Assembly: GCA_963749495.1 (NCBI GenBank)
Contig: CAVVMW010000021.1
Span: 320,001-384,000, forward strand
Length of the DNA stretch: 64,000 bases
Source of the DNA: an uncultured bacterium
GTDB lineage: Bacteria > Verrucomicrobiota > Verrucomicrobiia > Limisphaerales > UBA8199
Reading direction: 5' to 3'
Shown: positions 11,473-16,453 of the stretch, in pieces
Position numbering within the stretch: the first letter of the stretch is position 1
How the letters are laid out: every line of letters starts with the position of its first letter
Program-made: the position numbers and the translations under genes
Notes under the pieces: model-generated
Seen by the model: the letters and a program-made list of their open reading frames with translations, nothing else
Databases searched by the model: none
What the model was told of the DNA's origin: nothing

Positions 11473-12017
11473 AGGAACAAGCGCAGGCAACCACCCTGGC
11501 CCGCAACCTGGGAGACTTGGCCCACGTTTCGGGCCTGGCCATCCGCTTGGCGAGCTTGACCGGGACAGGAGATCGTCTTCCAGAGTGGCTTCTCAAGGTC
11601 GCGGTGGAACGGGGCGCAACGCATTACCAGCGTAACTTCGATCCGGCGCTCCCACCGGACATCCCGACAATCTCCGACGAAGAAATTGGCGTTGCCCTGT
11701 GCCTGGGCCAGCACCCTTACCACTTGGACAACCTTCGCGCCGCCGCCCAGTTGCTCACTTCGCCGCGCGTGGATGCCGCACGCCTTTGCCGCCTCGCCGT
11801 GCGCGAGCGTTGCGAACCGGTGCTGCTCCACATCGCCGCGGTCGCCGAACGCTTCGCCGCCGCGCTGGAGCCCTGGGCCTACCTGCGCGAGCACCTGCCG
11901 CCCCGCTGGGTCCCCCGGACCGGTGCCCTGCCGCACTGGACTCGCCTTGTGAGCCACACGGGGGTGACCGCGCAAGGAGGTCCGCCGAAAACCGTCTGGC
12001 TCTGCCGCCATGAATAA
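11463..12017 (+). CDS. Hypothetical protein, paralog 2 (putative antitoxin partner)
   Basis: Overlaps the start of the downstream nucleotidyltransferase by 8 bp. Confidence 0.75.
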   Translation: MELKEQAQATTLARNLGDLAHVSGLAIRLASLTGTGDRLPEWLLKVAVERGATHYQRNFDPALPPDIPTISDEEIGVALCLGQHPYHLDNLRAAAQLLTSPRVDAARLCRLAVRERCEPVLLHIAAVAERFAAALEPWAYLREHLPPRWVPRTGALPHWTRLVSHTGVTAQGGPPKTVWLCRHE

Positions 12018-12585
12018 CCCGCTGCGTATCCTCCAGACCCTGGACCGGCATCTGACCGCGCCAGTGGAAATCACCCTGTTCGGTCGCGCCGCGCTGGCTC
12101 TCGGCTTCGCCGCGGGCCCCGCCGCTTTTGCCGCCACGCACGATGTGGACGCCATCCTGCCGCTTGCGTGGCTGGCGGTCGAAGACGAGAACCTGGACTT
12201 CTGGGAGGCTCAGCAACGCACCAACGCCGAGCTCGAACCGGAAGGTCTCTATCTCACGCACCTGTTTCGTGAACTGGAGGTCATTCTCACACCGGACTGG
12301 CTGGGCCGCCGCGTTCGAATCCCGCTGGGGCTCGAGCGTCTGACGGTGTTCCGTCCGGCCACACTCGATCTCATCCTCACCAAAATGGCGCGTGGCGATG
12401 CCAACGACCTGGCCGACATCGCATTTCTGTTGACCCGCGAATCGCTGACCGCCGATCAACTGCGCGCGGCGTTTGCGCGCGCCCGTGTGCCCGACGTGCC
12501 TGAAATCCAGGCTCTTTTCCGCGCTGCCCAACCCAAAGTCCTGGCACTGGTGCAGCCTCGAGGAAATAGGACTGCCTCCTCATGA
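12010..12585 (+). CDS. DUF6036-like nucleotidyltransferase (AbiEii-like putative toxin)
   Basis: LFGRAALAL, T.DVD, DLILTKMARG..NDLADI motifs. Confidence 0.7.
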   Translation: MNNPLRILQTLDRHLTAPVEITLFGRAALALGFAAGPAAFAATHDVDAILPLAWLAVEDENLDFWEAQQRTNAELEPEGLYLTHLFRELEVILTPDWLGRRVRIPLGLERLTVFRPATLDLILTKMARGDANDLADIAFLLTRESLTADQLRAAFARARVPDVPEIQALFRAAQPKVLALVQPRGNRTASS

Positions 12586-12753
12586 AGCCACTCCCCAGGA
12601 CGCCGAAGGCGTCGCTCATACCAGCCCGGGGCCAGCGCTCGGGGGTTCACGGCCCTACGCGCTCGGCTGAGCGCTGAAGGCGCGATTCATCGTGCCCCTG
12701 AGCAACGCGCCAAATTCCTTGTAAATCACCGGTTGCCCTCGTAGAATCGGCGC

Positions 12754-13395
12754 GTGTGCACGGGTTTCGAATACGATGTTTTCCTAAGCCACAGCTCAAA
12801 GGACAAGACGGTGGTGCGCCCGCTGGCGGAGCGGTTGCGCACTTGTCGCGCCGAAGCCGCCGGGCGAAGGCGGAAGGACGGGCTGAAGGTGTGGCCCGTC
12901 CGGCTGAAGCGCCTGCGAGAAGGCGGATTCGATGGATGGGTGCTCAGGCCCGAGCCTCCCCTCGCCCATCGGCTGGGAGAGGGCTCAGCGGTGAGGGCGG
13001 CGAAGGTCAATCCGCCTTCGCTCACAAGCTACGGCGGGACAGGGGACCGGCTGGAGCACTCGCTCGTGCTGGCTGGTCCGGCCGTAGCTTCAGTGCGAAG
13101 GCGGACCTGTCCCGCCGTAACCTCTTGGCGGAGGCGGATGCTCTGCATGTCGGCCAGTGCTTTCGGCTCTGACTGGGCGCAGTTGGCTCGTCGCTCCGAA
13201 GCTTCAGTGCGAAGGCGGAAGGCCGGCACGTGTGGGAGGGGCAACTTGCCCTTTCGCGACCCGCTGAACCTGGAGCGGCGTTTCATTCCCCTGCGCCTCG
13301 ACGACGCCCCCATCAAAGGCTCCGTGGAACAAACCCCGTCCAGTAGTAATAGCCGCTATAGCTGCATCGACAGGCATGGACATCCCCCGATTTGA
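12754..13395 (+). pseudogene. TIR-domain gene (N-terminal remnant) with multiple in-frame palindromic insertions
   Basis: Removing the inserts restores YDVFLSHSSKDK.VVRPLAERLRKDGLKVWFD.W...LEHS.VLVLCMSA.AFGSDWAQLEAGT...FRDPLN.ERRFIPLRLDDAPIKGS. Confidence 0.85.
12842..13219. repeat. Six 33-bp REP-like insertions (12842-12874, 12895-12927, 13011-13043 inverted, 13073-13105, 13106-13138, 13187-13219)
   Basis: Consensus CYNGTCSSGCCGWAGC-N6-GCGAAGGCGGA; each exactly 33 bp. Confidence 0.9.
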
Positions 13396-16300
13396 AACGC
13401 AACACCTGAATCCAAGAATCGCTGGCGCCGACATCGGTGATGCTTTTCAAGGATTCGTTCATGAATTACTTCTGCCTGAGCATCCCCAACTGCATCGTTT
13501 TCCTGGTGGCGGAAAAGATGGAGGAATCGATCTCATTGAGACGGCAGGCGCGTGCTTCGTCGCACAATGCAAGGTTGTCGGGGACGACGACTACGCACAA
13601 ATCGAACAGCGCTGGAAAACGGTGAGGGGGCACTTGGAGGAACATCTGCGCGACCCCAATGGGCCGACCAAAGGTCAGTCGTAATACGGTCCTTGGTATT
13701 CTACGGACGCGCCAATCGCTGAGTAGGCTCTCTGTGTCAGCGCAGTCTTCGCAAACGAGCAACTACGCCGTGACCTGGCGACAGGGATCGCCGGTTACTT
13801 CCGCGATGTCGCCAAGCGGCGCCGACACCTCTCCCATCTTGCAGCTCTGAGGGTCACAGTTGTTGACTGGAACGACCTTTGCGACCGCCTGCGCAAGCGA
13901 CCCAACACTCTGTTTCGGTGGTTTCCCAGATCACGGCCAAACGGCTTCGTCCCGCTTGATGAAGCGATTGATGTCGGCACATTCCGCGCTTACCTCAACA
14001 GTGGCACGTTGCCTTACTACAGCGTGGCTGAACATCTGTACGCCGCGCCCTCGCCGGGCAACGTCGCGATTCTGGATGAGGATAGTCTTCTCGTTCAGAT
14101 CGACAACCGGACGGTTACGGGACTGGTAATCAGCGGGAAGGGCGGGATCGGGAAAAGCCGGTTGACGTTGGAGCTTGGTTGGAAGGCGCTAAGAAAGGGT
14201 TGGGCCGTCATGCGAGTGGAAAGCCGCCTCAAGAGCGATGCGCTGGAGAGGCTCGCTGAACAGCTCTCGCCGCACATCCCAGCGCTGTTGCTCGTTGATT
14301 ACATCGAGACGCAGAGTGATTTCCTCGAACTGGTGGAGAATATATATCTTCTGAATGACACAGGCGTGGCACGCATTGGCTACGTTGCGGCGTGCCGCAC
14401 CGGTTACTACCACGAAGCTGTCGGTGGGACTGCCAGGCACTTGCCTCTTGATCTTTCGCCTCCACCGGGAGATGCCGCGGCTTTCTGGTTTAAGGAATAT
14501 CGCTGTGAATCTGTCAAGAGGATCTTGGCCAGAGCTGGACTCACCGTTACAGCGCAACATCTGGCAGTTTGTCACGATCTTCCGATTCTAGCCGTCTTCT
14601 TAACTTACCTGCACACGTTAGGGCGAACTGAGGAGCTTGCGGAATTGCTCAGGGAGGCAGAGTTTGGGCGGTGGATTGCCAGACGGGTGCAACTCAGTTT
14701 TTCGGCAAGGGATGTTTCGCGTGCCTTGGCATTGCTCGTTCCGCTGTTTCCGATGACGGATGCTGCCGCCGACAGACTTGAGTCTGTACAACTGCGTCCG
14801 GTTTTCGAACGTTTGGCAACTGACGGCTGGATCGAACGGGTGACGCCGTCCGAGCCGGCTTCATCCTGCGAGTGGGTTACGGCCCACGACGTTCTGGCCG
14901 ATCAGATCCTGATTGCCTATTTGCGCAGCATCCCCAATACGGCTGAGGCTTTTGTGGCACAACTCCTTTCACTCGCTACGAAGCTTGATTGTCTCGCTTC
15001 TGCCCTAATCGCGTTACAGCGAATCGCCGACGCGCCGCCCCTTAACGCTGTGCCGTGGGGTATGGTCATTACGAAGGCGATTGAAATGAACGAGAACGCC
15101 TGGCGTAAGGTCCGCAGCCTCCTGATTCGAACGACACCGCTGTCCGTTCCCGAAGGAATTGCGCTGCTCAATAAGCACAAGGGTCTTTGGACCGATGCGG
15201 AGCGAGAGATTGACTTCCACAATGCCCTTGGATGGTTCTGCCGCTGGTTGGCAATCACGCGCAGCGGGATTGATTCGGCGACACTTAAGCAGGAGTTAAC
15301 CCCATGGGTGATCAAAGCCGCACTGTTTGCCGAGAGAAGCAATTTTGTGCTCTCATGGGGCTTGCGGCTCGTTCCTGAAGCTTTGGCACATGTCGCACTA
15401 AAATGGATTGCCAATCGCCCAACTCTCTTCCAAACGCACTACTTAGTGGTCGCATGGCTGCAATGTCACCTGCCGGTCAAGGAAATCGGTGCCGCGGTTC
15501 AGTCCTGGTGTCAGAAGTTTTCGTCGGACCCTCACCTGAGCTTCGTAGCTGAGGCTTGGCTGGACGCTGGCGGAGACAAGACGGTCGTGGAACAACCGAT
15601 CCGAGACTGGCTGGGCGTCAACGCGAACAGGACGGGCGGGGCGGCAAGCCATGTTTACAGAGCTTGGCTGGAGGCTGGCGGGGACAACACGCTGGTGGAA
15701 CAACCGATCCGAGACTGGCTGGGCGTCGAGGCGAACAGGACGGGTGAGGCGGCAAGCCATGTTTACAAAGCTTGGCTGGACGCTGGCGGGGAACGGAATG
15801 TTGTGTGGGACTCCCTGCTGCTCTGGCTGACAAAGTACCGCACGAACGAATCTGCAGTATATGTGACGCACTTCGTGGCTAGGCACCGGGACCTCCCAGA
15901 GGCGTCAGTGAAGGACGTCTTGGCGTGGTGTCGCGCGTTCCCGGCGCACGAGGACGTTTTGTGGCGAGTGACCCAGCTCGGATCAAACCTCTTGAACGTC
16001 GATGTTTTGGAGGATGCGTGTGCGACAGCAGAAACGCTGTTGTCCCACACTGTTGACTCTTTAGAGGAAGTCAGCGAGCTAGCACGCGGGCAAGTCACGA
16101 CATTGCTCTGTTACCTGGTTGATGCTGCTAAAGAGCATTCGAGCAAAATGCGCGACCGATTGGACCGGCTCATTGTACTTTGGATGAGATACCCGGCCTC
16201 GTTTGGACGCAAACCGAAGCCTCACGCCAATATTCAGCGAATCGGATTTGCTCGCAGAGTGCTGCTCCTGCTTGATTCAGGTGAACTCAATATTGCCCGG

Positions 16301-16453
16301 GACAAAGCTTCTGTCCAACGGTTTCTCGAATGGATCGATGAGTGGGAAGTAGTCTGGAAGCGAAGGTTGCATTCGTCGATTGAGGTTTATAGCACACGGT
16401 ATCCAGCACCGGAAGCGTGGAGCATCGTTCGTTTGGAGGAACCGGAGGAATGA
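13376..16453 (+). pseudogene. Restriction-endonuclease-like + P-loop (STAND-like) NTPase + helical repeat protein, interrupted by TAA 13682 and TAG 13724
   Basis: FQ..V..LL...GKDGGID...AQCK PD-(D/E)XK motif; Walker A SGKGGIGKS; Walker B-like LLLVDY; 13376 and 14009 ORFs in the same frame; visibly AT-richer than flanks. Confidence 0.75.
15554..15790 (+). repeat. 108-bp (36 aa) intragenic tandem repeat, ~2.2 copies
   Basis: Units start at 15554, 15662 and 15770: AWL(D/E)AGGD.T.VEQPIRDWLGV.ANRTG.AASHVY. Confidence 0.9.

Follow-up and report, generated by a model that had tools for sequence, protein, structure and literature searches.

The 64,000-nucleotide stretch of DNA analyzed here (the window) carries a TIR-domain gene whose frame is interrupted by six related 33-nt hairpins, an arrangement that is probably best understood as an old pile-up of REP-like elements in a dead allele, with the reading frame kept by the 33-nt length of the elements themselves. 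The 33-mers would be copies of a small REP-like mobile hairpin that persists at low copy number across the bacterial order and inserts precisely, without target duplication, into other hairpin repeats, into intergenic DNA and occasionally into genes. The lineage of this TIR allele would have gained copies over a long time, with the window allele carrying more than any other, and recombination between alleles may have combined copies that arose separately; the frame would have stayed open because all copies come from a 33-nt subfamily rather than through a frame-sensing process. Mobilization would presumably proceed in trans, as single-stranded DNA handled by an HUH-type (Y1 or Y2) transposase, the hairpin may have spread locally within the gene, and its copies may have accumulated because the gene was already dead. 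The source genome (G000) comprises 11.37 Mb in 31 contigs, with 63% GC, 88% completeness and 5.8% contamination, and the window features discussed below are the following:

12010..12585, plus strand: DUF6036 nucleotidyltransferase gene upstream of the TIR gene (27.1 bits, over the 23.6-bit cut-off)
12754..13395, plus strand: TIR-domain gene remnant, open frame of 213 codons (ORF; alignment to intact alleles)
12842..12874, plus strand: hairpin element 1, 33 nt, between the RLR and KDG codons
12895..12927, plus strand: hairpin element 2, 33 nt, between KVW and FD
12953..12997, plus strand: family-A REP unit (CCCTC...GGGAGAGGG...GGTGAGGG type), 45 nt
13011..13043, minus strand: hairpin element 3, 33 nt, inverted
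13073..13105, plus strand: hairpin element 4, 33 nt, within strand C codons (between VLV and LCMS), head-to-tail with element 5
13106..13138, plus strand: hairpin element 5, 33 nt, abutting element 4 without a spacer, with more degenerate motifs
13187..13219, plus strand: hairpin element 6, 33 nt, splitting the Glu codon of W-A-Q-L-E, with a degraded stem
13231..13251, plus strand: small palindrome, a net +15-nt loop variant of the TIR subfamily
13376..16453, plus strand: STAND neighbor gene, combining a nuclease-like N-terminus with a STAND NTPase (nSTAND_NTPase5, 24.7 bits, under the 34-bit cut-off)

All six elements named in the original prediction are present, at 12842, 12895, 13011 (minus strand), 13073, 13106 and 13187, and the predicted absence of further copies from the 64 kb is borne out by their consensus, which matches just these six when up to three mismatches are allowed and finds no match in 100 dinucleotide shuffles, so that none is expected by chance. 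The open reading frame runs uninterrupted through all six, and once they are excised in silico, 444 nt remain in frame and the TIR motifs quoted in the prediction are restored. Two uninterrupted alleles, a TIR-WD40 gene in G002:C54 (same genus as the source) and a TIR gene in G003:C50, show each 33-mer to be an exact extra block, as expected of the precise insertion without target duplication that had been proposed; at site 1 the boundary is ambiguous by a single A. The hairpin is thereby also set apart from MITEs, with their terminal inverted repeats and target-site duplication, since filled and empty sites reveal no duplication. Against Pfam TIR_2 (PF13676) the ORF matches over residues 9-31 only, at 23.2 bits and under the 28-bit cut-off, and its TIR membership follows from the alignment of the window frame, with the inserts set aside, to intact TIR alleles, over which homology extends from ~12766 to ~13327 and ends after ...PIKGS. 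An intact allele in turn aligns with AbTIR at E = 2e-15, its Glu lying opposite the W-x-x-x-E glutamate of AbTIR, which we take to be the catalytic residue; it is the codon of the Glu aligned with this residue that the last insert splits in W-A-Q-L-E, in agreement with the prediction.

Two further palindromic inserts had been claimed in the same frame, of which the first stands and the second does not need to be mobile. The family-A unit at 12953-12997 is an insert of 45 nt in place of 12 nt that clean alleles have in the BB-loop region, lengthening the frame by a net 33 nt, and it recurs in G053:C1, G378:C25 and G072:C795, alleles from three other families of the order. The palindrome at 13231-13251 is shared with L165, a metagenome contig whose TIR ORF is otherwise uninterrupted, and with G027, G178 and G395, and this distribution makes a mobile insertion improbable. 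A ~95-nt repeat (12599-12695) without an Rfam match lies shortly before the TIR start, and further copies, 72-94% identical, are numerous in the source genome and found across many genomes of the family; an Rfam scan of 12000-14200 returned a chance-level miRNA (E = 0.19) as its sole match.

Several lines of evidence indicate that the interrupted gene is dead. The window allele is without the last strand and helix of the TIR domain, whereas other alleles, including the insert-bearing L168, continue into the last strand, and the inserts interrupt the codons of strands B and C in addition to splitting the Glu aligned with the catalytic residue. In comparisons that involve the window allele dN/dS is 0.35-0.49, as against 0.19 between two intact alleles (58-133 codons, a small sample). 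All further alleles in which a 33-mer was seen are disrupted by other changes as well, and L168 (sites 2 and 6) and the G027 TIR alleles with other inserts are frameshifted or carry stops. On the downstream side, the STAND neighbor forms one frame of ~1025 codons with repeats, of the antiviral-STAND type, and is interrupted by in-frame stops (TAA at 13682-13684 and TAG at 13724-13726); it is a pseudogene, probably of recent origin. Upstream, the DUF6036 gene shows no interruption here or in four relatives, with continuous matches in G027, G038, G003 and G012; this gene and the IS91-like remnants described below are the control gene families that we compared. By its sequence, then, the host TIR gene is a truncated, non-functional remnant in a decaying defense locus.

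Other short inserts, including heptamer runs, are found in many TIR alleles of the order at recurrent places, and most of those alleles are frameshifted. In G027, five contigs (C212, C532, C169, C419 and C194; L007 and L049-L052) hold 2-3 decayed copies of the TIR module within a few kilobases, many of which share a heptamer-run insert (TTCGGAT-type, 27 nt, or 34 nt with a 7-nt loss), such that an allele already broken has multiplied; the heptamer copy number decides whether the frame is kept there.

The state of the window frame itself nevertheless sits awkwardly with a pile-up in a dead gene. Its 213 codons contain no stop and no small frameshifting indel, which is somewhat unexpected given the age of at least four of the insertions, and its seven net length changes, including the 45-for-12 family-A replacement, are all multiples of 3. 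An alternative account would have the in-frame copies tolerated and selected, with an insert-bearing protein retained for some function other than catalysis, much as with Rickettsia palindromic elements (RPEs). Besides the open frame and its length changes, this account can draw on element 2, the sole copy in the phase in which GTAG would give an in-frame TAG stop and one that carries GAAG instead; on G053, whose TIR frame has the family-A insert in its BB-loop region and no other interruption; and on the family-A REPs at large, 17 of whose 398 genomic copies (strict pattern) fall inside long coding-like frames. We nonetheless regard such a protein as decidedly unlikely, considering the cut strands B and C and split glutamate, the missing C-terminal strand and helix, the raised dN/dS, the frameshifted sister alleles, the occurrence of the 33-nt length in non-coding DNA as well, and our estimate that ~66 extra stop-free codons are not rare in GC-rich inserts. 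In line with this, the host gene is not intact and functional with its inserts, as an RPE-like relationship would have it.

The elements share a fold that opens with a C-Y-T-G-T-C tag and a 5-6-bp GC stem (CCGCC/GGCGG) with one bulged base, the most variable position of the element, continues through a symmetric 3x3 internal loop, in which GTA or GAA (GWA) stands opposite GAA, and ends in 2-3 upper-stem pairs, a variable 2-9-nt loop and a terminal GGCGGA. Copies across the family are seen to start with C-Y-T-G-T-C, CCCGTC, CTCGTC or CGTGTC, and with TGTC and CCTC allowed as variants they bear a CGTC tag, on an imperfect stem-loop palindrome within the 20-40 nt typical of REP-like sequences. 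Element 3 folds with z = -3.5, and the degraded stems of elements 2, 4, 5 and 6 make these fold weakly.

A profile built from the six copies recovers no other 33-nt copy in the source genome, which extends the predicted uniqueness of the 33-mer beyond the window; the hairpin itself is not unique, with relatives of other lengths bringing the family to ~32 copies. These consist of a 31-nt form, with 19 copies spread over ten loci, and of a small number of 27-29-nt forms, which occupy the middle of larger palindromic units that are themselves repeated. The 31-nt loci lie outside the window:

C1:801142-801265, C10:53119-53305, C10:747000-747030, C21:235316-377 and six more: 31-nt hairpin copies in the source genome

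All 19 of these 31-nt copies occupy one codon boundary (between …KKWRDL and ILRVWH…) of IS91-like transposase gene remnants, singly or in head-to-tail arrays of 2, 4 or 6, and break the frame, while two further IS91-like remnants retain an empty site (C14 near 172757 and C26 near 21394), so that empty and filled sites compared again indicate precise insertion without duplication. Hairpin inserts of three sizes (31, 20-21 and ~27 nt) are present in the dead IS91-like genes. Counted by distinct insertion contexts, 6 of ~11 for the family in 11.4 Mb fall in the TIR gene of the window. Several other arrangements of palindromes were seen in the same genome. At C18:7780, C18:83502 and C30:180462, a larger palindrome with ~25-nt terminal inverted repeats has the 27-nt hairpin form at its centre; two RtcB-like ligase genes (C5:327553-328647 and C15:357132-357911; L163 and L164) lie inside clusters of REP-like hairpins, with short REP-derived stretches read in frame (e.g., …LSPSDGERDGVRG…); and an open frame of ~1570 codons at C12:527337-529414 combines a weak Y1-transposase-like match with a family-A hairpin and a CCTGCC…GGCAGG palindrome.

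Beyond the source genome, 39 of 201 genomes sampled from the order contain the strict family pattern, compared with a single match for a reversed control pattern, and so do 14 of the 45 genomes of the family-rank taxon. The family is thus multi-copy and dispersed in its own and related genomes, as REP-like elements are, with a low copy number (1-20 per genome), lengths of 29-36 nt and locations mainly between genes or within other repeats. Of the 32 copies from 30 loci of other genomes, one measures 29 nt, 12 measure 30 nt, nine 31 nt, seven 32 nt and three 33 nt, and just two lie inside long frames with coding-like GC3. To this predominantly extragenic distribution the source genome, with its copies in TIR and IS91-like genes, is the exception. 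In G014, 14 of 17 copies are exactly 33 nt long and are nested in three non-coding repeat contexts, such as the loop of family-A hairpins. The original prediction had read the constantly kept frame as the sign of a special process, and it is this claim that G014 leaves without support: 33-nt copies dominate in non-coding DNA there, and as 33 nt is a natural subfamily length, any such copy keeps the reading frame automatically.

This TIR family is widely spread: 52 of 401 order genomes have a match, and the TIR domain retains 72-86% protein identity among the best 80 of 299 loci, which are distributed over many phyla, the top matches being Verrucomicrobiae MAGs. Alignment with clean alleles of related genomes identifies the 33-mers as derived insertions rather than ancestral sequence, as the prediction had supposed. 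The insertions are, however, not private to the window. A 33-nt copy occupies site 1 in G291:C179, a tiny TIR fragment; site 2 is filled in G003:C48 and in the JGI metagenome contig L168; G003:C7 has a 31/33-identical copy at site 3 and retains the first 8 nt of element 4 at site 4 before it breaks off; and site 6 is filled by 33-nt copies in L168, whose copy there differs from element 4 by 2 nt, and in a contig of the sequencing run X5. A metagenome search with the interrupted ORF yielded six loci, with elements in L168 only. Since the same insertions are found at the same sites in decayed alleles of other genomes, they are old, and the predicted picture of repeated independent insertions focused on one gene holds for the concentration of contexts but not for independence throughout, given that sites 1, 2, 3, 4 and 6 are occupied elsewhere.

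The comparison of elements with their surroundings is consistent with inheritance of these insertions. At four sites, same-site copies match those of the window at 28/33, 27/33, 31/33 and 27/33 positions, and the 36-nt flanks are about as similar, so that common descent suffices. Furthermore, all 12-13 TIR-resident copies in any genome are 33 nt long, even though 30-nt copies are the most frequent in the order, which points to spread from one 33-nt lineage. The occupancy of sites 2 and 3 is nevertheless mosaic: the window has both, L168 has 2 and not 3, G003:C7 has 3 and not 2, and G002 has neither, such that all four combinations exist, a pattern that needs recombination among paralogous alleles, recurrent gain or seamless loss.

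Recurrent gain would be expected if the hairpin repeatedly hit preferred target words in the conserved TIR gene, with the silencing of a costly NADase immune effector as its effect or selected function. The flanks of site 1 do resemble the spot occupied by 30-nt copies inside the family-A REPs of G311, and those of site 4 (CTGG^TGCT) match one of the three G014 contexts, likenesses that hint at target preference. Elements 4 and 5 are dissimilar and yet abut exactly, which fits reuse of a target that survives insertion; and in the run-X5 contig the site-6 element differs from that of the window at 9 of 22 positions, a far greater divergence than that of the 101 aligned nt made up of the element's last 11 nt and ~90 nt of flank, which differ at 4. 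The mosaic occupancy and the 6 of ~11 insertion contexts that this one gene accounts for can be read in the same way. However, the similar element and flank identities at four sites are what shared descent predicts, no target motif is common to the nine junctions compared, a second hit on a dead gene brings no benefit, and the X5 evidence consists of a 30-nt loose end in a single contig. On balance, we consider recurrent targeting unlikely, and independent same-site insertion, which the X5 contig had led us to suspect, was set aside in view of the identities at the four sites.

Seamless loss, the remaining source of mosaicism, would make the gene switchable, with elements leaving at the DNA level by peel and paste, as IS200/IS605 elements do, or at the RNA level, and with empty sites as the record of losses. 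Without a target duplication, a seamless exit would restore the codons exactly, the presence/absence mosaic is of the expected kind, and the 31-nt sister form interrupts a transposase gene frame at ten loci. Against these points, several copies have degraded stems, an RNA signal is hard to square with the inverted copy, excision could not restore a gene that is truncated in any case, and gene conversion among many TIR paralogues is a simpler account of the mosaic. Nor does an excised junction occur in the contigs of four public sequencing runs, although these are contig fragments that make for a weak test; the only clean allele among them differs at 5 of 48 flanking positions and hence belongs to another allele or organism. 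We hold a switch of this type to be very improbable. The stronger proposition that an 11-codon hairpin repeatedly colonizes a few fixed TIR codons throughout the order and also leaves them seamlessly, which would make the mosaic the trace of a gain-and-loss switch, or of a mobile-DNA attack, acting on an abortive-infection NADase and not of passive decay, commands little probability as well. Two routes by which the protein might escape its inserts were tried and rejected: translational bypass, in view of junction codons that lack matching take-off and landing sites and of 33-nt copies that keep the frame in any case, and RNA-level splicing, which the RtcB-like ligase in REP-rich clusters had brought to mind, in view of the one inverted element and of elements that have no bulge-helix-bulge motif.

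The same public data bear on the physical reality of the inserts. No public run contains more than 0.15 of the region's sampled words, and in the contigs of the four runs compared, a 193-nt contig spans elements 3-5 with 1 mismatch and another short contig spans the 3' break with 0 mismatches; these two near-identical contigs may come from the source sample. Together with the presence of the same elements at the same sites in the independent assemblies G003 and G291 and in the JGI contig L168, they reduce the chance that the 33-mers are an assembly or polishing artefact to practically nothing.

As for the machinery of mobilization, the original prediction had suggested a search for a nuclease or transposase gene flanked by the element, and no such transposase gene was found among 36 Y1_Tnp loci, 12 of them from the source genome, which has 24 Y1-transposase-like matches, and 24 from four of the five copy-rich relatives searched. 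A single lone element copy was seen at these loci, 170 nt from one gene (L186), and the REPtron/RAYT arrangement of a Y1 gene flanked by inverted REP copies is absent from them. The flank ends at the nine junctions read TGG in four cases, TCA in two, and GCA, TCC and CTT, with no single word common to all.

Taken together, we favor an old accumulation of hairpins in a dead TIR allele as the probable explanation, while its own difficulties, beyond the unexpectedly open frame, include the net length changes in multiples of 3, the uniform 33 nt of the TIR copies, the mosaic occupancy, the X5 mismatch pattern and a mobilizing enzyme that was not found. If this ordinary reading is true, the locus would be a documented case of hairpin repeats accumulating in dying defense genes of large soil and sediment genomes, and it would add an undescribed REP-like family with a TGTC tag, a GWA/GAA internal loop and head-to-tail arrays. 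It would also carry two warnings for annotation, namely that a 213-codon 'TIR' frame, though open, can be a wreck and that in-frame inserts need not imply selection when the length of the element is a multiple of three. If recurrent-site insertion or seamless loss were true instead, a mobile hairpin would be implicated in controlling or sabotaging a TIR immune effector, and the locus would matter more.

The arrangement can be compared with several known classes of short inserts. Translational-bypass inserts, known from T4 gene 60 and from the 'byps' of Magnusiomyces mitochondria, are likewise short, lie in coding sequence and restore the protein on removal; they differ from the hairpins here, which have no matching take-off and landing codons, include one inverted copy and, at 33 nt, keep the frame. 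RPEs, reportedly described by Ogata et al. in 2000, are said to be selfish palindromes carried in frame inside protein-coding genes, and the 33-mers resemble them as selfish palindromic DNA that lies in frame within coding sequence. RPE-1, at ~100-150 nt, leaves its hosts functional, with the insert on the protein surface, whereas the 33-nt elements interrupt strands of the core and the Glu that aligns with the catalytic residue, in a gene that is truncated. A mechanistic parallel is offered by REPIN/RAYT and IS200/IS605 systems, in which HUH mobilization acts on a hairpin substrate, leaves no target duplication and may reuse its target to yield tandem copies. The hairpin form, the absence of duplication and the possibility of tandem copies by reuse of one target are shared with the family described here, which departs from these systems in having no Y1 gene flanked by the element among the 36 loci, no fixed tetranucleotide 5' of the insertions at the junctions compared, and its GTAG in the internal loop rather than at the end.

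The remaining comparison is with the tagged REPs. In Di Nocera et al. (2013, PMC3733652), REPs are divided into GTAG- and CGTC-tagged superfamilies, CGTC being often replaced by TGTC; REPs are found inserted within other palindromes and also within genes, sometimes twice per gene, with the highest intragenic counts in the verrucomicrobium Opitutus terrae and in Rickettsia conorii; and CGTC REPs have no dedicated transposase, while an association of REPs with RAYTs is described. The present hairpin agrees with these tagged REPs in being a 20-40-nt imperfect palindrome with a conserved terminal tag and variable loops, in its low to moderate copy number, and in its mostly intergenic locations with some copies nested in palindromes and some in genes; as for CGTC REPs, no dedicated transposase was found for it either. 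Measured against the CGTC-1 to CGTC-4 families as characterized in that text, which have an 8-9-bp stem starting with A-T, a 4-5-nt loop and a CCA tail (PMC3733652), its stem, loop and tail dimensions do not correspond: the stem is of 5-6 GC base pairs, with a bulge and a 3x3 internal loop. The hairpin family therefore has a CGTC-like tag but is not one of the four CGTC families described there. Head-to-tail dimers and arrays, called rare in the same account, are present here, six copies crowd into 0.4 kb of one gene, unlike the tagged REPs it covers, and the host gene is dead, where the intragenic cases it presents lie mostly in genes presumed functional (PMC3733652).
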